Counted from the first letter of the stretch, positions 1 to 40,252 are shown. The stretch is DNA of 64,000 nucleotides from a bacterium (GCA_021824345.1 JAKAKW010000012.1:1491-65490); one strand, 5' to 3'. A program made the numbers and translations. Notes: generated by a model from the letters alone, not told the origin.

Positions 1-3000
1 GTCAATGACCGGAGCGGCTCCGCTGAAGGTGAGGTTTCCGCCGAAGGTCGGCGACGTGTCAAACACCAGGTTCCCCGTGCCGGTGGTGCCCGTCACTGAA
101 GATTGAAGATCTGCTGCCGCTATGGCGGACACCAGATTTTTGCTTGTGTCCGTGGCCACCAAGCGGGAAGCGGTGAGGCCGGAGAGGTTCACCGTGCCGG
201 TGAGAGTGATCGCTCCGGAAGAGGAGAGCCCAGTCAATCCCGAAAGCGCCCCGGCGGAAGAGAGAACCGCGGTCGGGGTGTTGATGAAATTAGTGAATCC
301 GGTCGCCGACGCGAAGTTTATCCCGTTAATCACATTGGAATTAGTGTTCGTGGCGGCATTGAAGTTCACTCCGTTCACCGTGTTCGTGTTGTTGGCGTTC
401 GCACCGTTTGAGAGAGTGAGGCTCTCGCCGTTCACCGTCACCGCTCCCGCTCCGGCGTTGTTGTTGGTCACGGACAAAGTCTGGGCGGAGCCGGCTACGG
501 TATTGGCGTAAGTCTGAGAGAAGACCCCGGTGCCGGAAGCGATGGAAAGATTGGAATTGTTCTGCACGGTCACCGCTCCGTTCGAAGTTAGGCCCGAAGT
601 GGCGGTGATCAATCCAGAAATTGTCGGAGTGGCCGTCCAAGCGGTGCCCGATACGGTGAGGTTTCCGCCCAAGGAAGTGAGGTTCGCGCCCGATACGGTG
701 AAGGTGTTGTCCAAAGTAGCGGCTCCGTGGAGAGTGAGCGCTCCGGGAGTGGTGGCGCTTCCAATGGTGTTTGCGCTGGAGGCGCCGCTTCCAAAGGTGT
801 TCACGGTGCTTGCTCCGGTGGCCAGGGTGGCGTTACCGCTCGAGGAGAGGGTGGTGAAGGCTCCGGTGCCGGCCGAGGTCGCGCCGATCGAGGTGAAGTT
901 TCCCGCCGCCGGAGTAGTCACTCCGATGGTCGTGCCGTTGATCGTTCCGCCGGCAACGGCCACGGAAGAAGAACCGAAATTATTGGCGGTTACTAATCCT
1001 GTTCCGAATGTCACCGGCCTATTCGTCGTCGTGTTTATCCCCAAGGCGGCGCTCGCGCCCGAAGCGTCAATGACCGGAGCGGCTCCGCTGAAGGTGAGGT
1101 TTCCGCCGAAGGTCGGCGACGTGTCAAACACCAGGTTCCCCGTGCCGGTGGTGCCCGTCACTGAAGATTGAAGATCTGCTGCCGCTATGGCGGACACCAG
1201 ATTTTTGCTTGTGTCCGTGGCCACCAAGCGGGAAGCGGTGAGGCCGGAGAGGTTGAAACTGGCGCCGGAGATAGATCCTCCTGTAATAGTACCCGTGCCG
1301 GCGTTGATGGAATTGTTATTGGTGACAATACCGCTGGTCCAAGTACCGGCGATTTCAATGGCAGTAGCGCCAGTGCCGGTGTTGTTTACATAAATGCCAT
1401 TCTCGGTCGTGCCAGTGCCGGTGTTAGTGAGGGATAGCAATTTTTGCGTGCCGGAAGCGGTGTTGTTGGTAAGAATGCCGGAGTATAGACTAACATCCGT
1501 ACTAATGGAGCTATTGTCCACAGTGTATGTGGAATTGAAGGGATAGTTCACGGAAAGGTAGCGCAGATCGCCTGTTCCGGAGTTCCAGGAAAGAACCGCA
1601 TTGCCCGAGCCGGAGTTGCGCTGAAAGATGACGGACTTTGCGGTATCGCCGGTCTCAGTGCTGCCAATGGTCCAGCTATTGGCCGAAGTGCTTCCGGTGA
1701 CTACCGTTCCAGCAATATTGTTGGCGGTCAAGGTATTGAAATATCCGTTCTGCCAATAGTATCCCGGACTGCCGATGGAATTCGTATTGGTAGCAGACGA
1801 AGAAGTGGGTCGGAAGGCGCCGTTTGAATCAAAAATTACCCGCTGGTTGGTTCCCGGATTCAAGTCCAGCACATATTTGGATCCGGTGCCGGTGCCCGCG
1901 CCGGAAATGTTGATAGCCAGACCGGTATATCCGCCGCCGCCGGTGGTGTTGTCCGTCACTGTGATTACCTGCCCGTTGCTTGTCTGCCCGTTGCCGGCGT
2001 TGGCGGTGAAAGTGTCGCCGATAAGGGTGCCATTGGTAATGGCATTGTCTGTCACCGAAAAGAGAGTGCCGGTCTGCACAGTGGAGGAGATGGAAGAGGT
2101 GCCGCTGTTCTGCTCGTAGTTGGTGACGTATAGGTTCGGAATGGTAACGTTGCCCCAGCCGAAAGTAACCGGCCGGCCGGTTATTGTGTTTATAGAAAGA
2201 GTGGAACTTATATCCGTCGTGTCAATCGAGGGATTTGTCGCGGTAAAGTTAGTGGCGGCGTTATTGAAAGTGACATTGCCCGTACCGGTGGAGAAAGTGT
2301 TCGCGCCGGTGACGGCGGTATTGCCGTTCAAAGAAACATTGCCAGTACCAGTAGAGAATGCGCCGGTGCCGGTTTGAGAGAAGCTGGCATTGTTCTGCAC
2401 CGTCACCGCGCCGTTCGCGGTGAGGCCGCTGGTGGCGGTGATCAGGCCCGAAATGGTGGGAGTGGCGGTCCAAGCGGCGCCGGAGACGGTGAGGTTGCCT
2501 CCCAAAGTTGTCAGATTGTTTCCGGAGACGGTGAAAGTGTTGTCCAACGTCGTCGCTCCATGCAGAGTCAAAGCTCCCGGAGTGGTGGCGGAACCGATGG
2601 CGTTCACCGAAGATGCGCCACTGCCGAAAGTGTTGGTAGCGCCCAGGCCGGTGGCCAAAGTGGCATTACCGGAAGAAGTTAAGGTGGTGAAAGCGCCGGC
2701 GCCCGGGGTGGTGGCGCCGATCGAGGTAAAGTTTCCGGCCGCGGGAGCAGTCACTCCGATGGCGGAGTTGTCTATCGTCATTCCCGTAATAGTTCCGCCG
2801 GTGATGGCCGAAGATGACGAAGCGAAGTTGTTGGCGGTGACTAATCCGGTTCCGAATGTCACCGGTCGGTTGGTCGTCGTGTTGATGGCCAGAGTGGAGG
2901 AAGCGTTGGCGGTATCAATCACCGGATTCACCGCCGAAAAGGTAGTGTAAACATTGTTGAAAGTGACATTGCCCGTACCGGTGGAGAAAGTGTTGGAACC

Positions 3001-3948
3001 GGTGACGGCAGTGTTTCCGTTGAGCGATACGTTTCCCGTTCCGGTGGAGAAAGTGCCGGCGCCGGACTGAGAAAAATTGTTGTACAGGGTCGTCTCTCCG
3101 TACATATCAAGCGAACCGGGAGTGGCCAGCGATCCGATGATTAATTTTTTTGTTGCGTCATTCCAGGAAAGATTCGCGTTGTCCTGGGAGACCGCGCCTC
3201 CGCTGCCGATATAGAGAACCGAACTCTGCGTGAAGCCGGGCAGGGTGACCGCTCCGGAAATGTCGCTCGCGATGAGTTTGGCTGTGTACACGTTCGCGAA
3301 TCTAGAGAGCGCTGAACCGAGGTCGTAAGTGTTATCGGCGGACGGTCCGATGTTTCCTCCTGATTCCAGCTGGAAAGTATTGCTGTCGGTCGCGCCGAGC
3401 ACCAGCCGTCCGTTGATCCAGGCATTTGCGTTTTGTCCGCCGGAGATTTGGTTTTGGACATAGCTTGGAGAACCGGAGGCGACAGAGGAATTGTCATGAT
3501 ACGGACTCGGTGTGTACAGAGCCGGACGATTTTGCAGGCTGTAATAGTTGCGGACAGCCAGATCTGCGAGCGAAGAAACTCTCTTGTCTATCTGCGCCCA
3601 GGTGATGGCCTGAGGATTCGGGTTGGTGACATAGATGACGGTCGGACTGGGCGCGCGATTGGCCGGAACACTGCCGAAAGAGGGCGGATTGTTCGTGCTG
3701 GAAGAGATGGAAGGCGAAGGATTTTGTCCGAAGGTGGAAAAAAATCCGGAAGTGACTTTGATGTAACATGTGGGGTCGGAAGGTCCGCATCCTCCGCCGG
3801 AAGTGGAGACGGCTCCGGGGTCCAAAACTCCGCTGGAGAGCTCCGGAACGTAGTTTGGAACGGCCGCAAAAGCGGCGCTCGCGATGAAAAAGATGAAGGC
3901 AAAAACCCCCCAGAATATAGCCTTATTTATCAAGCATTTTTCAGGCAT
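1..3948 (-). CDS. Very large repetitive secreted surface/adhesin-like protein (5' end at 3948; the gene runs off the window start, partial)
   Basis: Manual translation of the minus strand from the ATG at 3946-3948 is open to position 1. The N-terminus MPEKCLINKAIFWGVFAFIFFIASAAFA looks like a signal peptide. The body is T/S/G/N/A-rich with repeated blocks such as NTFSTGTGNV(S/T)(L/F)NGNTAVTG, ATTPGALTLHGATTLDNTFTVSGNNLT and TISGLITATSGLT. The plus-strand ORFs in the track here are antisense shadows. Confidence 0.6.
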   Translation of the reverse strand, partial: MPEKCLINKAIFWGVFAFIFFIASAAFAAVPNYVPELSSGVLDPGAVSTSGGGCGPSDPTCYIKVTSGFFSTFGQNPSPSISSSTNNPPSFGSVPANRAPSPTVIYVTNPNPQAITWAQIDKRVSSLADLAVRNYYSLQNRPALYTPSPYHDNSSVASGSPSYVQNQISGGQNANAWINGRLVLGATDSNTFQLESGGNIGPSADNTYDLGSALSRFANVYTAKLIASDISGAVTLPGFTQSSVLYIGSGGAVSQDNANLSWNDATKKLIIGSLATPGSLDMYGETTLYNNFSQSGAGTFSTGTGNVSLNGNTAVTGSNTFSTGTGNVTFNNVYTTFSAVNPVIDTANASSTLAINTTTNRPVTFGTGLVTANNFASSSSAITGGTITGMTIDNSAIGVTAPAAGNFTSIGATTPGAGAFTTLTSSGNATLATGLGATNTFGSGASSVNAIGSATTPGALTLHGATTLDNTFTVSGNNLTTLGGNLTVSGAAWTATPTISGLITATSGLTANGAVTVQNNASFSQTGTGAFSTGTGNVSLNGNTAVTGANTFSTGTGNVTFNNAATNFTATNPSIDTTDISSTLSINTITGRPVTFGWGNVTIPNLYVTNYEQNSGTSSISSTVQTGTLFSVTDNAITNGTLIGDTFTANAGNGQTSNGQVITVTDNTTGGGGYTGLAINISGAGTGTGSKYVLDLNPGTNQRVIFDSNGAFRPTSSSATNTNSIGSPGYYWQNGYFNTLTANNIAGTVVTGSTSANSWTIGSTETGDTAKSVIFQRNSGSGNAVLSWNSGTGDLRYLSVNYPFNSTYTVDNSSISTDVSLYSGILTNNTASGTQKLLSLTNTGTGTTENGIYVNNTGTGATAIEIAGTWTSGIVTNNNSINAGTGTITGGSISGASFNLSGLTASRLVATDTSKNLVSAIAAADLQSSVTGTTGTGNLVFDTSPTFGGNLTFSGAAPVIDASGASAALGINTTTNRPVTFGTGLVTANNFGSSSVAVAGGTINGTTIGVTTPAAGNFTSIGATSAGTGAFTTLSSSGNATLATGASTVNTFGSGASSANTIGSATTPGALTLHGAATLDNTFTVSGANLTSLGGNLTVSGTAWTATPTISGLITATSGLTSNGAVTVQNNSNLSIASGTGVFSQTYANTVAGSAQTLSVTNNNAGAGAVTVNGESLTLSNGANANNTNTVNGVNFNAATNTNSNVINGINFASATGFTNFINTPTAVLSSAGALSGLTGLSSSGAITLTGTVNLSGLTASRLVATDTSKNLVSAIAAADLQSSVTGTTGTGNLVFDTSPTFGGNLTFSGAAPVID

Positions 3949-4228
3949 ATAATTCTTTTTCTGTAAGTATAATTATATCAATTTTTAGGCATAAAAAAAA
4001 GGCAAAAATGCCTGTGGATAAAGGTTTTTCGGTTATTTGACCGATCATTGTATTTTTGTTCCGGTAATTTGATTTTTGAAGTTATTTCTTGCCGTTTTTA
4101 AATGGACATTTTCTTGAATTTTTTGAAAAATATTTTTTATTTTTTAAATTTTTCCAAGATATTGAAAAATACAGGAAAATGTAGTAACATTGGCCGATGC
4201 CGGAAGCGAAGCCGGCATTGGTTTAGAA

Positions 4229-4531
4229 GCCGTTGTAGCTCAGTTGGTAGAGCACGCCCATGGTTATCGCAAATAGCCCACTGTTTTGAAAACGAAACGG
4301 TGAATCCCGAATAACGGTTAAAGCCCTGAAAAGGGTAAGACCGTGGCGAATATTTTTTAATCGCCCGAACGACTGACAAGGGGCGCTAAGTTGGAAACGA
4401 TATGCGCAAGATACAGTCTAGTCCTCTTATAAGTTCAGGCATGTTTGCAAGTGATAGTGCGCAAGCTTGCTAGGACGAAAGAGAGGTGTAAGCGAAGGGC
4501 GAGGTCATCGGTTCGATCCCGATCAACGGCT
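4229..4531 (+). tRNA. tRNA-Thr(GGU) interrupted by a ~230-nt intron in the anticodon loop (exons 4229-4264 and 4495-4531)
   Basis: 5' half GCCGTTG-TA-GCTC-AGTTGGTA-GAGC-A-CGCCC-ATGGT. 3' half AA-GGGCG-AGGTC-ATCGG-TTCGATC-CCGAT-CAACGGC-T. The acceptor, D, anticodon and T stems all pair. The architecture is close to E. coli tRNA-Thr(GGU). The 5' exon ends in U and the intron ends in G. Confidence 0.6.
4265..4494 (+). ncRNA. Putative group I intron within tRNA-Thr
   Basis: 230 nt between the tRNA halves. 5' exon ends U, intron ends G. Contains AAGACCGU (4336-4343, P4-like) and AGUCCU (4420-4425, P7-like) strings recalled from cyanobacterial tRNA-Leu group I introns, plus a GCCCU-GAAA-AGGGU tetraloop hairpin. 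Subgroup not determined. Confidence 0.5.
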
Positions 4532-4567
4532 CCAGAAGAGAAATTTTTGCAAGAAAAATAAAAACAA

Positions 4568-4638
4568 GCCGATATAGTTCAGTGGCAGAACACTGCTTTC
4601 GTAAAGCAGGAACGTGGGTTCGATTCCCGCTCTCGGCT
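4568..4638 (+). tRNA. tRNA-Thr(CGU)
   Basis: Cloverleaf: acceptor GCCGATA/TCTCGGC (one mismatch), D-arm GTTC-AGTGGCA-GAAC, anticodon arm CTGCT-TTCGTAA-AGCAG (anticodon CGT), T-arm GTGGG-TTCGATT-CCCGC. Confidence 0.7.
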
Positions 4639-4655
4639 CAGAAGTTTGCGATATA

Positions 4656-4692
4656 GAAAAAGGGGGGGGGCAAATTTGCCCCCCCCCTTTCA
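4656..4692. terminator. Perfect palindrome AAAAAGGGGGGGGGCAAA|TTTGCCCCCCCCCCTTT downstream of the tRNAs (terminator-like hairpin)
   Basis: G9 and C10 runs flanking the self-complementary CAAATTTG core. Directly 3' of tRNA-Thr(CGU) and 5' of the DinD-like gene. Confidence 0.5.
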
Positions 4693-4763
4693 AATATGCT
4701 ACAATATCAGGGTCGAAGAAGACCTCCGCGAGTCTCATTATAAATTTAATGAGAATCAATGTC

Positions 4764-5612
4764 ATGAATGATCTGACGAAAATAGTGTTGTTTCAGAGCA
4801 AGCAGGTGCGAAAAACATTTCATAACGGAGAATGGTGGTTTTCTATCCTTGATGTGATAGAAGTGCTTACTGATTCCGTCCAGCCCGAAGGGTATTTGAA
4901 GGATTTAAGGAAAAGGAACGAGGCTCTCTCGGAAGAATGGGATCGCATTGCTGTTCCTCTAAAAATGCAAACTCCTGGCGGAATGCAGATAATCAATTGC
5001 GCAAACGTGGAAGGCGTTTTTCGCATTGTCCAATCCATTCCTTCTCCGAAAGCTGAGCCATTTAAGCGCTGGCTTGCCAAAGTGGGGTATGAGCGGGTGC
5101 GGGAAATAGAGGATCCGGAGCTTGCCACCAAGCGCACTCGGATGCTTTATAAGCTGAAAGGTTATCCGGATAATTGGATAGAAAAGCGCATGCGCGGAAT
5201 TGCCATCCGAGAAGAGCTCACTGATGAATGGAAAAATCGGGGAGCGAAAGGCAAGGACGATTATGAGATACTTACCGCGGAAATTTCAAAAGCGACGTTC
5301 GGGGTTACTCCTGACCAATACAAAAAAGTGAAAGGGCTGAAACGCCAGAATCTGCGGGACCACATGGACGATTTGGAGCTGATTTTTACCATGCTCGGAG
5401 AGCGGGCCACGACGGAGATCCATCGGGATGAAGACTCGCGCGGTTTGCCCAAACTGAAAGATGACGCCAAAAGCGGGGGAGATATCGCCGGCACGGCGCG
5501 GAAAAAATTGGAGAAGCGGCTGGGCCGGTCGGTGGTTTCCAAAAAGAATTTTCTGCCTGGAAACGCAGAAATCGCGAAGAAACTGACAAATAATGGTAAA
5601 AAAGGAAAATAA
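4764..5612 (+). CDS. dinD: DNA-damage-inducible protein D (DinD)-like protein with N-terminal Bro-N domain
   Basis: Bro-N-like N-terminus (FHNGEWWFSILDVIEVLT...GGMQIINCANVEGVFRIVQS...FKRWLAKVGYERVR). The C-terminal half resembles E. coli DinD. The track ORF starts at 4614 and overlaps the tRNA; the start was trimmed to the ATG at 4764 (alternative 4749). Confidence 0.7.
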   Translation: MNDLTKIVLFQSKQVRKTFHNGEWWFSILDVIEVLTDSVQPEGYLKDLRKRNEALSEEWDRIAVPLKMQTPGGMQIINCANVEGVFRIVQSIPSPKAEPFKRWLAKVGYERVREIEDPELATKRTRMLYKLKGYPDNWIEKRMRGIAIREELTDEWKNRGAKGKDDYEILTAEISKATFGVTPDQYKKVKGLKRQNLRDHMDDLELIFTMLGERATTEIHRDEDSRGLPKLKDDAKSGGDIAGTARKKLEKRLGRSVVSKKNFLPGNAEIAKKLTNNGKKGK

Positions 5613-7733: not shown

Positions 7734-7875
7734 CGGATCGCGCATGCCGAAGAATATTTCCTGAAAAAAGCCTTGGCAGGCGCGACGGCGCCGGACAGAG
7801 AAAATTTTCAGCGGAAAATTATGCGTGCTTTTCGAGAAGACCGACTTGTCCTCCGGCATGCTATACTCTCAGCAT

Positions 7876-8760
7876 ATGGACGACAAAAACGCCATTGAAC
7901 AAAAAATCAAGGACCTGGAAGCGCGGATGAACGCGCCCGATTTTTGGAGCGACAAGCAGAGGGCGCAGGAGGCGATCAGGGAGCTCTCCGAGCTCAAGGC
8001 CAAGAAAGAAGGCGCGGGCAAATACGACAAAGGAAGCGCCATCGTTACCATAATCTCCGGCGCGGGAGGCGACGACGCGGAAGATTTTTCCCGCATGCTT
8101 CTTGAAATGTACATGAAATACGCGGACAAGCGCGGATGGGGAATTTCTTTCATTCATCAGAACGAAAACGACTACGGCGGATATCGGAACGTGTCTTTTG
8201 AAATATCCGGCAAGGGCGCTTACGGCGACTTGAAGCATGAAAACGGAGTGCACCGGCTGGTGCGCATTTCTCCCTTCAACGCAAAAAAGCTCCGGCACAC
8301 CTCTTTTTCCCTGGTGGAAGTACTGCCTAAGTTTTCCAAGCTGGAAGAGCGCGATATTGTCATTCCCGAAAGCGACCTGAAAATTGAATATTCCCGCGCG
8401 GGAGGGCCGGGAGGGCAAAATGTGAACAAGCGGGAAACGGCGGTGCGCATAGTGCATATTCCCACCAATATTTCAGTGCACTCGGCGGAGGAGAGGAGCC
8501 AGGAGGCCAATCGGGAAAAGGCCATGAACATTCTGCGGGCCAAAATATTCAAAAAAGCGGAAGAGGAGAAAAAAAGCGTGGAAGAATCCATGCGTACGGC
8601 CAGAAACGCCGATATAGAATGGGGAAACCAGATCCGCTCGTATGTTTTACATCCTTATAAAATGGTCAAAGACCATCGCACCGGAGCGGAAACGGCGGAA
8701 GCGGAAGGGGTGCTTGCGGGGAATCTGGATCTCTTCATTGAAGCGGAAAAAAGTCTTTAG
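7876..8760 (+). CDS. prfB: Peptide chain release factor 2
   Basis: GGQ motif (AGGPGGQNVNK). SPF tripeptide (RISPFN) specific to RF2. N-terminus MDDKNAIEQKIKDLEARMNAPDFW. Single continuous frame with no programmed +1 frameshift site. The track's GTG start at 7825 is a possible alternative. Confidence 0.85.
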   Translation: MDDKNAIEQKIKDLEARMNAPDFWSDKQRAQEAIRELSELKAKKEGAGKYDKGSAIVTIISGAGGDDAEDFSRMLLEMYMKYADKRGWGISFIHQNENDYGGYRNVSFEISGKGAYGDLKHENGVHRLVRISPFNAKKLRHTSFSLVEVLPKFSKLEERDIVIPESDLKIEYSRAGGPGGQNVNKRETAVRIVHIPTNISVHSAEERSQEANREKAMNILRAKIFKKAEEEKKSVEESMRTARNADIEWGNQIRSYVLHPYKMVKDHRTGAETAEAEGVLAGNLDLFIEAEKSL

Positions 8761-37051: not shown

Positions 37052-38860
37052 TCACCCCAAATATCCTCCCGCGTCTTGAAAGCCGCCGGCCTGAATGTTC
37101 CAGAGTTTTTTGTACAGGCCTCCTTCCTTCAGAAGTTCCGCGTGCGTTCCTTGGGCCACCACTTTTCCTCCTTCTATTACCACGATTCGGTCCATTTTCA
37201 TGATAGTGGAAAGCCGATGGGCGATAACAATGACAGTTTTCCCTTGCATAAGTATTTGCAAAGCTTCCTGAATGAGCGCTTCCGATTCGGAGTCCAAACT
37301 GGAAGTGGCTTCATCCAGCACAAGAATGGGCGCATTCTTCAGAATCGCCCGAGCGATGGCCACCCGCTGGCGCTCTCCGCCGGAAAGTTTTACCCCGCGC
37401 TCGCCAACGAAAGTTTCATATTTTTCCGGCAGCAGGGAAATAAACTCATGGCAATGAGCTTTCTTTGCCGCCTCTATCACTTCCGCATCTGTCGCGTCCC
37501 GCCGGCCATATCGGATATTTTCCATTAGAGTGCGATGGAACAAAATCGGCTCTTGGGGAACAAAGGCGATGGCGTCGCGCAGGGAATCCTGGGTTACTTC
37601 CGCGATATTCTGCCCGTCGATTTCAATACTTCCGCCGGTGATGTCGTACAAGCGCAGAAGCAGTTTTGTCACCGTCGTCTTGCCGGCGCCGGACGGGCCG
37701 ACCAAGGCCAGCTTTTCTCCGGCGCTTACTTTTAGATTGAAATTATCCAAGATCTGCTTATTTTCATGAAATTTGAAATCCACATTTTTAAATTCAATTT
37801 CGCAATTTTTCGCTTGCAAAGAAACGGCTCCGGGCATGTCCCGAACTTCATGCGGAGTTTCCAATATTGTTGCCATTTCCACCGCATCCGCGTATGCGTC
37901 ATAAAAGCGCCGCAGCTGCCGGTTTATGCCCATAAGCTGGGTGAAGAGGCCCAAAAGATAGCTTTGAATCAGTACGAAATCCCCCACGCTGATCAGGCCT
38001 TTTTGCCAATATATCACCGCTCCATACAGCAAGCCGATATTGATGGCAACCATCAGTATGCCCTGTATGGACCAAATGTATTCGTCCGCGTTCCATGAGC
38101 GCAGAGTTGCCTTGCGCCATAATTCCACTACGCCGGTAAAAAGCCCCTGCTCATAATTATTGCCGGAGAAAAGGGAGATAGTATTTTGGTTGGTAATAGC
38201 GTCAGCCAAAACGCCGGTGAGCTTGCTGTCCGCCTTGCTTCTCGCCACCCGAATAGGCTGGCGGAGTTTGGCAACATACATTTGGAAAACTATGAAACAG
38301 ATGACCCAAACCCCCAGGGCGATGCCGAGAACATGATTGCGAATAAACAGGATCGCCACCGCGCCGACCACGAATAATGCTGTTGGAAAAAAATTCAACA
38401 GCATTGCGTCCACTATCACCTCTAAAGAAGCGGAAAATTTGCTTACGCGCCTTGTCAGTGTTCCGCTGAACTGTGAAATGAAGAAATGGTAGGAGTGCCG
38501 GATGAGGTAATAGAATGAAGAGGCGTAAAGGTCGGCCATGGAGCGGGATTCAAGATACATGATGCTGTAAACTTGAACTCGGAAAGCCATCCATCCGATT
38601 GCCGATATGCCGGCGATAATCCAGACCAAGGTAAAGAGCTGGTGCATAAGATCCGGCGTCGGATTTCCGGCGGCAATCAGATTAAAAAGCTGTTTTAAAT
38701 AAACAGGGGAGGCAAGTCCCGCCCCTTGTACGAGAACCGCGCCGGCAATTACAAGCCCAAAAAGCCCCGGGTGTTTCCGGATTTCTTTGGCGTAAGCGCG
38801 GATGACATATCCTGTGCGGATTTTTGTTTGTTTTAATGAGTCGTCAGACATAAAAAACAC
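37052..38860 (-). CDS. ABC exporter, fused permease/ATPase (MsbA-like multidrug/lipid exporter)
   Basis: Six-TM N-terminal domain. Walker A GPSGAGKTT, signature LSGGERQRV, Walker B ILVLDEATS. Confidence 0.85.
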   Translation of the reverse strand: MFFMSDDSLKQTKIRTGYVIRAYAKEIRKHPGLFGLVIAGAVLVQGAGLASPVYLKQLFNLIAAGNPTPDLMHQLFTLVWIIAGISAIGWMAFRVQVYSIMYLESRSMADLYASSFYYLIRHSYHFFISQFSGTLTRRVSKFSASLEVIVDAMLLNFFPTALFVVGAVAILFIRNHVLGIALGVWVICFIVFQMYVAKLRQPIRVARSKADSKLTGVLADAITNQNTISLFSGNNYEQGLFTGVVELWRKATLRSWNADEYIWSIQGILMVAINIGLLYGAVIYWQKGLISVGDFVLIQSYLLGLFTQLMGINRQLRRFYDAYADAVEMATILETPHEVRDMPGAVSLQAKNCEIEFKNVDFKFHENKQILDNFNLKVSAGEKLALVGPSGAGKTTVTKLLLRLYDITGGSIEIDGQNIAEVTQDSLRDAIAFVPQEPILFHRTLMENIRYGRRDATDAEVIEAAKKAHCHEFISLLPEKYETFVGERGVKLSGGERQRVAIARAILKNAPILVLDEATSSLDSESEALIQEALQILMQGKTVIVIAHRLSTIMKMDRIVVIEGGKVVAQGTHAELLKEGGLYKKLWNIQAGGFQDAGGYLG

Positions 38861-38927
38861 AGGCCAAACCGCCAGGCTTAGCCGTATTCAATATACTATT
38901 GAGACGTTTCAAAGTCTATTTTCTTTC

Positions 38928-39590
38928 TTATTTTACCCACTTTGCCACCTCTTCCATGGGCCGGCGGATTTTTTCCGGCTGTTCATTTACCCGATATCCG
39001 AAGGCAGCCATGCAGGCAACGCCGAAATGGTCCGGATTCAAGATTTTTTCCTCTGTTAGAATGTCTTCCAATTGATCGCGGTTGAATCCCTCAATGGGAC
39101 AGGAATCTATTCCCAAAAAGGCGGCGGAAGTGAGCATATTGCCAAGCGCGATGTAGCTTTGTTTGCACGCCCAGTCAAAAACGGAACGGTCGGTGTCCAG
39201 ATTGAAATCATTCTTTTGCCACTCGTCCAGACGCGCCATCCTTTTCCCGATCTTTTCGGAATCGTTATGCTGCACCTCGGCCATGAAGTTTCTAAGATAT
39301 TCAGAATTAGGCCGCAAGTCTTTTGCCTTTCGGGCGAGAATTACAACAAAATGGCTGGCAGTGGGGAGCTGTTTCTGCGCGCCCCAGGCGACCTTGCGGA
39401 TTTTTTCCCTGATTTCAGGATTTTGCAGGACTACGAATTTCCACGGTTCAAAACCGAAAGAGCTCGGGGATAAACGTCCCGTCTCCAGAATAACCTTGAA
39501 ATCTTCTTCCGAAATCTTCTTTTCCGGGTCAAATTCCCTGCAAGCGTGCCGGAAATTAAAAGCGCCTAAAATTTGCTTCTTTGTGTCCAT
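38928..39590 (-). CDS. NAD(P)H nitroreductase family protein
   Basis: Nitroreductase fold motifs (RHACREF, PSSFGFEPWKFVV). 220 aa. Confidence 0.75.
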   Translation of the reverse strand: MDTKKQILGAFNFRHACREFDPEKKISEEDFKVILETGRLSPSSFGFEPWKFVVLQNPEIREKIRKVAWGAQKQLPTASHFVVILARKAKDLRPNSEYLRNFMAEVQHNDSEKIGKRMARLDEWQKNDFNLDTDRSVFDWACKQSYIALGNMLTSAAFLGIDSCPIEGFNRDQLEDILTEEKILNPDHFGVACMAAFGYRVNEQPEKIRRPMEEVAKWVK

Positions 39591-39700
39591 GCTTCTATTA
39601 TACTCTCCCTGTCAAGCGGGGGAGTAAGATTATTTGGCTATTGATGAACATATTTTCCGGTCAGATATTTTTTATGTATTTATAACCGATTTACCTAAGT

Positions 39701-40252
39701 TCATAGATTTTTTAACATGTCGTACCGACCTTTTTTCTTTCCATGTATTACTTCCTCATATTTACCTTTGTTCTCAAAGCCAAGCTTTTCATATAACTTT
39801 AGGGCGGGAATTTGTTCTGGATTATCCATAACATTCAAAGATGCTTGCTTGCCGCCACGTTCTTTTATTTTTTCTAAGATTTCTACCATAAGCTTTTCCC
39901 CCGCATGCTGGCCCCTAATTGCAGGAGAAATATAGACATGTCTAATTCTCCAAAGCCCTCTTTGTATTTCTGATTTATCAATTGCCATTGCCAGGCCTTT
40001 TGTGTCTTTATTATCTTTCAGTAAGAGAGTTATTGCATTAGGATCTTTCAAATGCGCTTTCCAGTGTTTATCTCTTCTGTATGTTTCTCTTCTGACATCT
40101 TCAGGATCTGCGTCAATGGAAAACGCTTCTGGATTTTTTTCTACCGCCTCAAGCCAGATTTCCTTATAATCCCGCCAGTCTTCCGGTCCTGCTGTTTTTA
40201 CAGTAATTACATGCTGTTCAAGATTTGGTTCTTTTAAAAATTCCTTTGGCAT
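39701..40252 (-). CDS. GNAT family N-acetyltransferase
   Basis: Acetyl-CoA binding motif (RGQHAGEKLM...LYEKLGFE). Confidence 0.7.
   Translation of the reverse strand: MPKEFLKEPNLEQHVITVKTAGPEDWRDYKEIWLEAVEKNPEAFSIDADPEDVRRETYRRDKHWKAHLKDPNAITLLLKDNKDTKGLAMAIDKSEIQRGLWRIRHVYISPAIRGQHAGEKLMVEILEKIKERGGKQASLNVMDNPEQIPALKLYEKLGFENKGKYEEVIHGKKKGRYDMLKNL

Follow-up and report, generated by a model that had tools for sequence, protein, structure and literature searches.

A predicted group I intron in a tRNA-Thr(GGU) gene of an apparent Patescibacteria genome, and its homologues at the same site

Introduction

Can a transfer RNA (tRNA) gene whose anticodon loop is broken by 230 nucleotides (nt) of other sequence still supply a tRNA, and what would remove the insert? 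The question is raised by a tRNA-Thr(GGU) gene in a stretch of bacterial DNA of 64,000 nt (GCA_021824345.1, JAKAKW010000012.1:1491-65490), which is called the window here and from whose first letter all positions are counted. The gene is interrupted right 3' of the anticodon by an insert at 4265-4494, which lies between U36 and A37 and not between positions 37 and 38. Positions 4229-4534 appear to constitute an intact tRNA-Thr(GGU) gene that carries a functional group I intron without an open reading frame (ORF), a reading which, on the strength of the sequence and its predicted structure, is about 93% probable. It is supported because the helices covary across 108 homologous copies of the gene.

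Results and discussion

The interrupted gene

An initial annotation of the window, made from the sequence, had proposed a tRNA-Thr(GGU) split by a group I-like intron of about 230 nt, and that proposal holds up. When 4265-4494 is deleted, the 76-nt product is identified by ARAGORN as tRNA-Thr(ggt) with a perfect cloverleaf. In silico, the spliced junction joins ...GCACGCCCAUGGU to AAGGGCGAGGUC...; seen from the exons, the 5' exon terminates in ...CCCAUGGU, with U4264 as its last base, and is followed in the spliced product by AAGGGCG..., the beginning of the 3' half of the tRNA (4495-4531), after which CCA is encoded at 4532-4534. The U at the end of the 5' exon and the G at the end of the insert, both pointed out in the initial annotation, are present. 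As a 303-nt precursor (pre-tRNA), the gene is predicted to fold with an energy of -109.1 kcal/mol, compared with -83.8 ± 4.3 kcal/mol for shuffled sequences (z = -5.96).

Homologous pre-tRNAs, 108 in all, were aligned with MAFFT (alignment A1), and counts of aligned sequences given below refer to this alignment. Acceptor pairs 1-72, 2-71 and 3-70 are G-C, C-G and C-G in 108 of 108 sequences; G1-C72 and C2-G71 are presumably threonine identity elements. The anticodon-stem pairs, which span the intron, show compensatory changes in five cases out of five.

Architecture and covariation of the insert

The helices of the insert occur in the canonical order of a group I intron, with P1, P2 to P9, a P3/P7 pseudoknot, P9.0 and a terminal G (Table 1; P, J and L denote paired segments, joining segments and loops). 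RNAalifold, run on the alignment without guidance, recovered the four tRNA stems together with P1, P2, P4, P5, P6, P7, P8 and P9, and found compensatory changes in 41 of 63 pairs. After the P3 pseudoknot was included, standard pairs made up 97.3% of 7229 cells, as against 34.6-42.7% when the partners are slid by one to three columns. Helices kept by compensatory change across 108 species require selection on the fold.

The U4264·G4276 wobble pair at the 5' splice site is U·G in all 108 aligned sequences, and two pairs of the P1 extension have compensatory changes. Such changes are also found in every scored pair of P2 (nine of nine) and P5 (four of four), in four of the five pairs of P6, including an exchange of GG..CC for CC..GG, and in all pairs of P8 (four of four) and P9 (five of five). 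Both pairs of P9.0 covary, one being GC in 64 sequences, AU in 37 and GU in 4, and the other CG in 58, UA in 42 and UG in 6. P3 is 100% paired, with one pair changed from C-G to U-A in 4 sequences, and P4 is nearly unvarying, with five of its six pairs constant and the sixth either U·G or C-G. The last base of the intron is a G, followed by A37 and A38, in 110 of the 115 split tRNAs recovered (the window copy included). The base at intron position 224, a G or an A, tends to change along with the P9.0 pair 157-229, the combination being G/G/C in 52 aligned sequences and A/A/U in 30; there might be a base triple here, or merely shared ancestry.

The core strings of the R and S elements are AACGACUG (also CGAACGACUG) and AAGAUACAGUC. 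They match the classical R and S elements as well as the consensus of the Rfam group I model RF00028 (AGACUA and GAUAUAGUC), which is a match in sequence, guanosine binding being predicted. The guanosine-binding pair of P7 is presumably G4371-C4418, an assignment taken over from the group I consensus. Two of the core motifs in the initial annotation can be placed exactly: the P4-like string AAGACCGU (4337-4344) corresponds to J5/4 with the adjoining 3' strand of P4, and P5 is the GAAA-capped helix. Its P7-like string AGUCCU (4420-4425) was misplaced, as it is composed of J7/9, P9.0 and the start of P9; the true 3' strand of P7 is CAGUC at 4414-4418, 6 nt upstream.

L2 takes the form of a GNRA tetraloop in 104 of the 108 aligned sequences. 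GAAA in L2 is found with a receptor-like P8 in 42 of 44 cases, and other GNRA loops are found with a plain P8 in 61 of 63, an association with a Fisher p of ~8e-25 when phylogeny is ignored. The receptor-like definition used for this comparison is looser than the strict canonical 11-nt receptor, for which a search of P8 returned 5 sequences. The pattern fits a tetraloop-receptor tertiary contact between L2 and P8 like that of the Azoarcus intron.

Table 1. Coordinates of the interrupted tRNA-Thr(GGU) gene, the predicted elements of its intron and adjoining features of the window
Feature	Position	Strand	Description
Promoter-like site	4162-4190	+	TTGAAA-17-TAACAT; 39 nt upstream of the tRNA 5' end; consensus match only
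5' exon, tRNA-Thr(GGU)	4229-4264	+	Acceptor 5' strand, D arm, anticodon stem 5' strand, A32 U33, G34 G35 U36
P1 hairpin	4262-4278	+	GGU and UAU (4262-4267) on either side of the 5' splice site, loop CGCAA, internal guide AUAGCC (4273-4278)
Group I intron	4265-4494	+	230 nt, no ORF
P2	4279-4302	+	10 base pairs (bp), 4279-4288 with 4293-4302; L2 = AAAA (4289-4292)
P3	4306-4308 with 4380-4382	+	5' strand CCC with GGG; pseudoknot with P7
P4-P5 domain	4314-4344	+	P4 ACGGUU/GACCGU (4314-4319 with 4339-4344)
J4/5; J5/4	4320-4322; 4337-4338	+	AAA; AA
P5	4323-4336	+	GCCCU/AGGGU, GAAA loop
P6 hairpin	4345-4365	+	GGCGA/UCGCC, 4345-4349 with 4361-4365
R element	4366-4382	+	J6/7 CGAAC, P7 5' strand GACUG (4371-4375), J7/3 ACAA, P3 3' strand GGG (4380-4382)
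P8 hairpin	4383-4407	+	GCGC...GCGC, CUAAG...UAUG internal loop (11-nt-receptor-like), GAAA-capped tip
S element	4408-4418	+	J8/7 AAGAUA (4408-4413) and P7 3' strand CAGUC (4414-4418)
P9.0	4421-4422 with 4492-4493	+	2 bp, encloses P9
P9	4423-4428 with 4481-4486	+	Plus 52-nt extension 4429-4480
Terminal guanosine (omega G)	4494	+	3' splice site
3' exon, tRNA-Thr(GGU)	4495-4534	+	A37 A38, anticodon stem 3' strand, variable loop, T arm, acceptor 3' strand, discriminator U4531, CCA
tRNA-Thr(CGU), intron-less	4568-4639	+	ARAGORN; Rfam tRNA model 62.4 bits
Hairpin	4662-4687		G9-CAAAUUUG-C9, perfect; between the tRNA pair and the BRO-N gene; terminator-like on both strands

A family of introns at one site of one tRNA

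Public genomes, one per species, were scanned for the core motif GACTRACAAGG-N15-45-AAGATAYAGTC, which was found in at least 120 loci. Among the 120 matches listed, 119 have tRNA-Thr(GGU) interrupted at the same site by this intron, which is thus present in at least 119 other bacteria. Automatic recovery as a tRNA split after U33-GGU36 succeeded for 114 of these 120 public loci (115 genes with the window), and five further loci among the matches listed contain the same gene cut by the end of the locus. The match in Ca. Limimorpha (L059; L numbers are the identifiers given to loci in this analysis) was rejected as a chance occurrence of the motif; it has neither a tRNA nor flanks like those of the family, and apparently falls within a coding region. 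When spliced in silico, all 110 cleanly delimited members (110 of 110) are called Thr(ggt) by ARAGORN.

The introns of the family are 158-266 nt long (median 193.5), and in BLAST alignments most loci match the window over a stretch that starts at tRNA base 1 and reaches approximately intron base 170. The 52-nt extension of P9 in the window copy is predicted to form a long hairpin; of the fetched loci, only those of the same species (L001-L003) have it. Samples with this organism are represented by the assemblies GCA_027349755.1, GCA_027428375.1 and ERZ27237587 and by run SRR13300764. The closest copies of the intron among the matches listed are L016 and L120, both labelled Saccharibacteria. 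Carriers include the closed CPR genomes CP174359.1, CP011209.1, OY970216.1 and OZ246407.1. According to record labels, which are as deposited and may be unreliable, about 94 of the matches listed belong to Patescibacteria or the Candidate Phyla Radiation (CPR), spread over many CPR classes and including 31 Saccharibacteria; a further 14 are unclassified, 8 are Gammaproteobacteria, and Pedobacter, Niastella populi and Bdellovibrionales account for 1 each. Each locus has a single insert, which without exception interrupts this tRNA at one and the same phosphodiester bond, and no second copy of the exact core motif was found in any fetched locus or in the 1.7 kb around the window gene (121 regions from 121 sources).

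Comparison with phage records by BLAST returned nothing beyond short matches to the tRNA exons. A single viral contig has the core motif (IMGVR_UViG_3300015613_000310, L126:5930-6200), with no tRNA nearby. Its intron-like insert (CCGAAUAUCGG ... UCGAACGACUGACAAGG ... AAGAUACAGUCUAG) apparently lies, when inspected by eye, within a protein-coding gene, and it has the appearance of a related group I intron located in a gene of a phage.

Genes for integration are found beside two of the relatives without CPR labels. At the Niastella populi locus (L053:4264-5450, NZ_LWBP01000002.1), a tyrosine integrase gene adjoins the 3' end of the tRNA, with a resolvase and a TrwB-like ATPase nearby, and at the other (L038:5890-7641) a large serine recombinase gene adjoins the 3' end of the intron-bearing tRNA-Thr(GGU). 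It might be that integrative elements targeting this tRNA carried the intron between phyla. The Niastella populi carrier, CCTCC AB 208238, has a strain designation and not a metagenome-bin label. It is probably cultured, and splicing could be tested in it directly.

Detection by tRNA finders

The split gene of the window is reported neither by ARAGORN with default settings nor by the Rfam tRNA model. If introns are allowed, ARAGORN finds the gene, with a boundary that is 2 nt off, and calls it Arg(gcg); in the relatives, too, the boundary is misplaced and the genes are called His, Pro, Leu and others. The boundary adopted here was set by the rules for group I introns (U before the intron, G at its end) together with the unvarying GGU across the family. 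tRNAscan-SE, according to its authors, is not designed for detecting group I introns (PMC8450103). Because default ARAGORN and Rfam miss the gene and tRNAscan-SE was not built for such introns, genomes that carry this intron will seem to be without tRNA-Thr(GGU), which would skew counts of tRNA genes, checks of genome completeness and conclusions on how codons are read in the CPR.

Predicted splicing and alternative explanations

The split gene would be transcribed together with the downstream tRNA-Thr(CGU). In the transcript, the anticodon GGU and the first three bases of the intron would pair with the guide AUAGCC to form P1, placing U36 in the U·G wobble, and the P3-P9 core would fold, with its P3/P7 pseudoknot, its A-rich J4/5 and its J8/7 (AAGAUA). 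A free guanosine nucleotide bound in P7 would attack the bond after U36. The terminal G4494, placed by the 2-bp P9.0, would then replace the free guanosine, and the 3'-OH of U36 would attack the G4494-A4495 bond, so that the exons would be ligated and the loop A-U-G-G-U-A-A restored. Throughout, the intron-spanning anticodon stem would hold the exons in place of a strong P10, and RNase P and 3' trimming would complete the tRNA. The chemistry in this scheme follows the standard group I pathway (PMC3984707), and the steps examined here are the structural ones.

Several points weigh against a functional group I intron. Splicing, both of the window copy and of every other family member, is predicted from sequence and structure. 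P3 has just 3 bp and is unusually short. The P4, P7, R and S strings are constant in the sample and covariation is therefore uninformative for them; as the search pattern itself included P7, R and S, their constancy is also partly a matter of construction. None of 500 shuffles reached the observed value on any of five measures, a control that ignores phylogeny, and the comparison with slid columns is the fairer of the two. The ARAGORN search for a further Thr(GGU) gene, which found none, covered the 64-kb window. The window copy differs from the family consensus (at least 90%) at one of 121 columns, namely in L2, which is AAAA in the window alone and could weaken the tertiary contact with P8. 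Its P8 still has the canonical receptor strings CUAAG...UAUG, and, as a speculation, a one-base slip in register that makes use of the preceding G (U-GAAA-A) may still present a GAAA loop. Finally, RF00028 (Intron_gpI) found no match in the window at its gathering threshold, and none even at E ≤ 10 when 4150-4700 (551 nt) was searched; nor was there a match at the gathering threshold in 18 loci with homologous introns.

The initial annotation had regarded the lack of a group I covariance-model hit as evidence against an intron. That argument does not stand up, as can be seen from two regions of phage T4 used as a control (L125:32956-34720 and 38236-40113, containing nrdB and td). RF00028 (Rfam 15) gives the proven T4 td intron a score of 40.3 bits, which is under the gathering score of 50, and misses the nrdB intron at E ≤ 1. 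Because the same search puts one T4 intron below threshold and misses the other, its failure to match is uninformative. The silence of RF00028 at this locus is a false negative: the model has low sensitivity and does not define the group I class.

If the insert were an old group I intron that had lost its ability to splice, the gene would be a dead pseudogene and ACU and ACC codons would be read by another tRNA. The AAAA loop of the window copy, the failure of standard tRNA finders to report the gene, and the fact that its expression is a matter of inference could all be accommodated in this way. Decay of that kind is nonetheless very unlikely given a copy that deviates at only one of the 121 conserved columns, in which every tRNA and intron helix is intact, that three independent assemblies of the same species give without a single base of difference, and that has no second Thr(GGU) gene beside it in the window; moreover, the compensatory changes that keep the helices across 108 species require selection on the fold. 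There is slightly less to be said for removal of the insert by protein enzymes, be it an archaeal-type bulge-helix-bulge endonuclease with a ligase or some other RNase, or for use of the halves as a split tRNA, which would suit the short P3 and an RNA that Rfam does not recognize, self-splicing being a prediction. The junctions do not resemble a bulge-helix-bulge, in that the 5' splice site is inside a continuous, covarying P1 with an unvarying U·G and not in a 3-nt bulge, while the 3' site follows a conserved G placed by the covarying P9.0. The core, furthermore, has the R and S strings of group I introns, and these, like the U·G of P1 and the P9.0 with its G, are specific to group I catalysis and have no role in protein-dependent tRNA splicing. 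The least probable of the alternatives, and one that can almost be set aside, is that a structured repeat or a miniature mobile element became inserted into the tRNA gene. Although the insert is highly structured and without an ORF, and two relatives with non-CPR labels have the gene next to integrase or recombinase genes, a mobile repeat is hard to square with one copy per locus at an invariable bond, with a core motif that does not recur in the regions searched, or with the sole non-tRNA relative found being an intron-like insert in a viral, apparently protein-coding, gene.

Comparison with known introns

Group I introns in bacterial tRNAs are known from Leu(UAA), fMet, Ile2(CAU) and Arg(CCU) (PMC8450103, PMC4033280), and most sit just 3' of the anticodon (PMC4033280). 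The initial annotation had considered both the Thr(GGU) host and the insertion 3' of the anticodon unusual; the host is indeed new, but the position is the usual one for group I introns in tRNAs, and the tRNA sites compared all supply the U of the U·G pair. What is new is the Thr(GGU) host, the size of the family and its breadth in the CPR, and the mechanism is ordinary. For bacterial tRNA group I introns, this would be a fifth host tRNA.

The Azoarcus tRNA intron is similar in being a small, ORF-less group I intron in the anticodon loop of a bacterial tRNA (PMC13168695) and in being inserted right after an anticodon ending in U. The partner of its internal guide sequence is the triplet CAU (PMC2241849), and here GGU pairs with GCC. 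Both introns are without P5abc, P2.1 or P7.1/7.2 domains, and the tRNA-Thr(GGU) family resembles the Azoarcus intron in its GNRA L2 and receptor-like P8. The CAU triplet of Azoarcus is the anticodon of tRNA-Ile, and the Azoarcus intron uses an L2-P8 tetraloop-receptor contact. The present intron differs in its tRNA-Thr(GGU) host and in a P3 of only 3 bp, and the likeness comes without an established sequence relationship. Self-splicing is proven for the Azoarcus intron (PMC13168695), whereas for the tRNA-Thr(GGU) intron it is predicted. With regard to subgroup, the compact architecture, in which P2 is present and P2.1, P5abc and P7.1/7.2 are absent, is like that of IC3 introns, but the S string AAGAUACAGUC follows the general, classical consensus. 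IC3 introns of tRNAs may differ at the J8/7-P7 string.

The cyanobacterial and plastid tRNA-Leu intron is comparable in its distribution, being ancient and fixed at a single position of one tRNA gene throughout a whole bacterial lineage (PMC4033280). The same lineage-wide pattern is seen for the tRNA-Thr(GGU) intron over loci labelled with many CPR classes, although the two introns differ in host lineage and core sequence, and the Thr intron sits after U36. The tRNA-Leu intron lies inside the anticodon, after U34, is ORF-less, and has its exons held by the anticodon stem, a role to which the title of the 1993 paper of Zaug et al. (cited in PMC3984707) points. In its core strings, the present intron is nearly identical to the T4 td intron ('group 1A' in AF158101), with AACGACUA / GAUAUAGUCU in td and AACGACUG / AAGAUACAGUCU here, and the A-U to G-C difference from td is compensatory within P7. 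Unlike the tRNA-Thr(GGU) intron, td has a protein-coding host gene, the I-TevI endonuclease ORF and ~31 extra bases between the P7 and P3 strands.

For the CPR, a review makes mention of self-splicing introns in genes for 16S, 23S and tRNA (PMC10221324), and some CPR tRNAs are described as having group I introns and as hard to detect for that reason (PMC8172020). These reports concern the same host radiation, but neither the host tRNA nor the structure or distribution of the introns is given in them. Among CPR 16S introns, many are of large size and contain LAGLIDADG endonuclease genes (PMC8172020), unlike the ORF-less tRNA-Thr(GGU) family. No description of a group I intron in tRNA-Thr(GGU) was found in the literature searched, in which CPR tRNA introns appear only in passing remarks. 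The more than 100 natural variants of this compact ribozyme, with their rich covariation, should be useful for structural work and for building the covariance model that Rfam lacks.

A wider scenario can be offered tentatively, and it is more doubtful than not. The intron may be ancient, vertically inherited and fixed in what is possibly the sole tRNA-Thr(GGU) gene across much of Patescibacteria, as a counterpart of the tRNA-Leu intron, with the copies labelled Bacteroidota and Gammaproteobacteria having arrived via tRNA-targeting integrative elements. If so, decoding of ACC and ACU in reduced, nucleotide-scavenging cells would depend on a ribozyme with a guanosine cofactor, and the supply of tRNA-Thr could be tied to the guanosine nucleotide pool.

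Genomic neighborhood

The split gene is preceded by a promoter-like site (Table 1), a candidate promoter of a two-tRNA transcript. The second tRNA is the intron-less tRNA-Thr(CGU) already noticed in the initial annotation, which begins 36 nt after the discriminator base of the split gene and 33 nt after its CCA, and which is probably co-transcribed with it. Thr(GGU) with the intron followed by Thr(CGU) is also found by ARAGORN in eight other loci (L009, L031, L061, L085, L096, L105, L111 and L120). The G9/C9 hairpin beyond the pair scores as the terminator part of several Rfam models, and it is not called by a simple terminator scan because its T tail is short. A gene with a BRO-N domain, which is common in phages and viruses, is located at 4614-5612 (+), directly after the tRNA pair and hairpin.

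The genes downstream encode the BRO-N domain protein, a pyridoxal phosphate-dependent enzyme, RF2, FtsE (named via the ABC_tran domain of its counterpart in L001), FtsX and CTP synthase. The order tRNA-Thr(GGU), RF2, FtsE, FtsX, PyrG is shared with CPR loci including L096, L061, L009, L093, L084 and L016, with ~47-72% amino acid identity, and because of this shared gene order the window appears to come from a Patescibacteria/CPR genome. The RF2 ORF (7825-8760, +) has only 311 amino acids, and its PCRF match begins at profile position 95. The N-terminal part may lie outside the ORF, as with the usual programmed +1 frameshift of prfB, or the protein may be short in this lineage.

Upstream, on the minus strand, a very long repetitive gene starts within positions 1-3948 and extends beyond the edge of the window. 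In loci of the same species, where it is called in L001 and L002, the product of this gene exceeds 1800-2200 amino acids and has Peptidase_S74 and bacterial Ig-like surface domains. Plus-strand ORFs over 1-3948 are probably spurious. The region 1-3966 was considered as a strain-variable integrated element and this was ruled out, as it is identical in other assemblies and the differences in gene calls are a matter of annotation. Repeats occur inside the long gene, with 1-189 equal to approximately 1066-1254, and 2264-2382 ~81.5% identical to 2957-3075.

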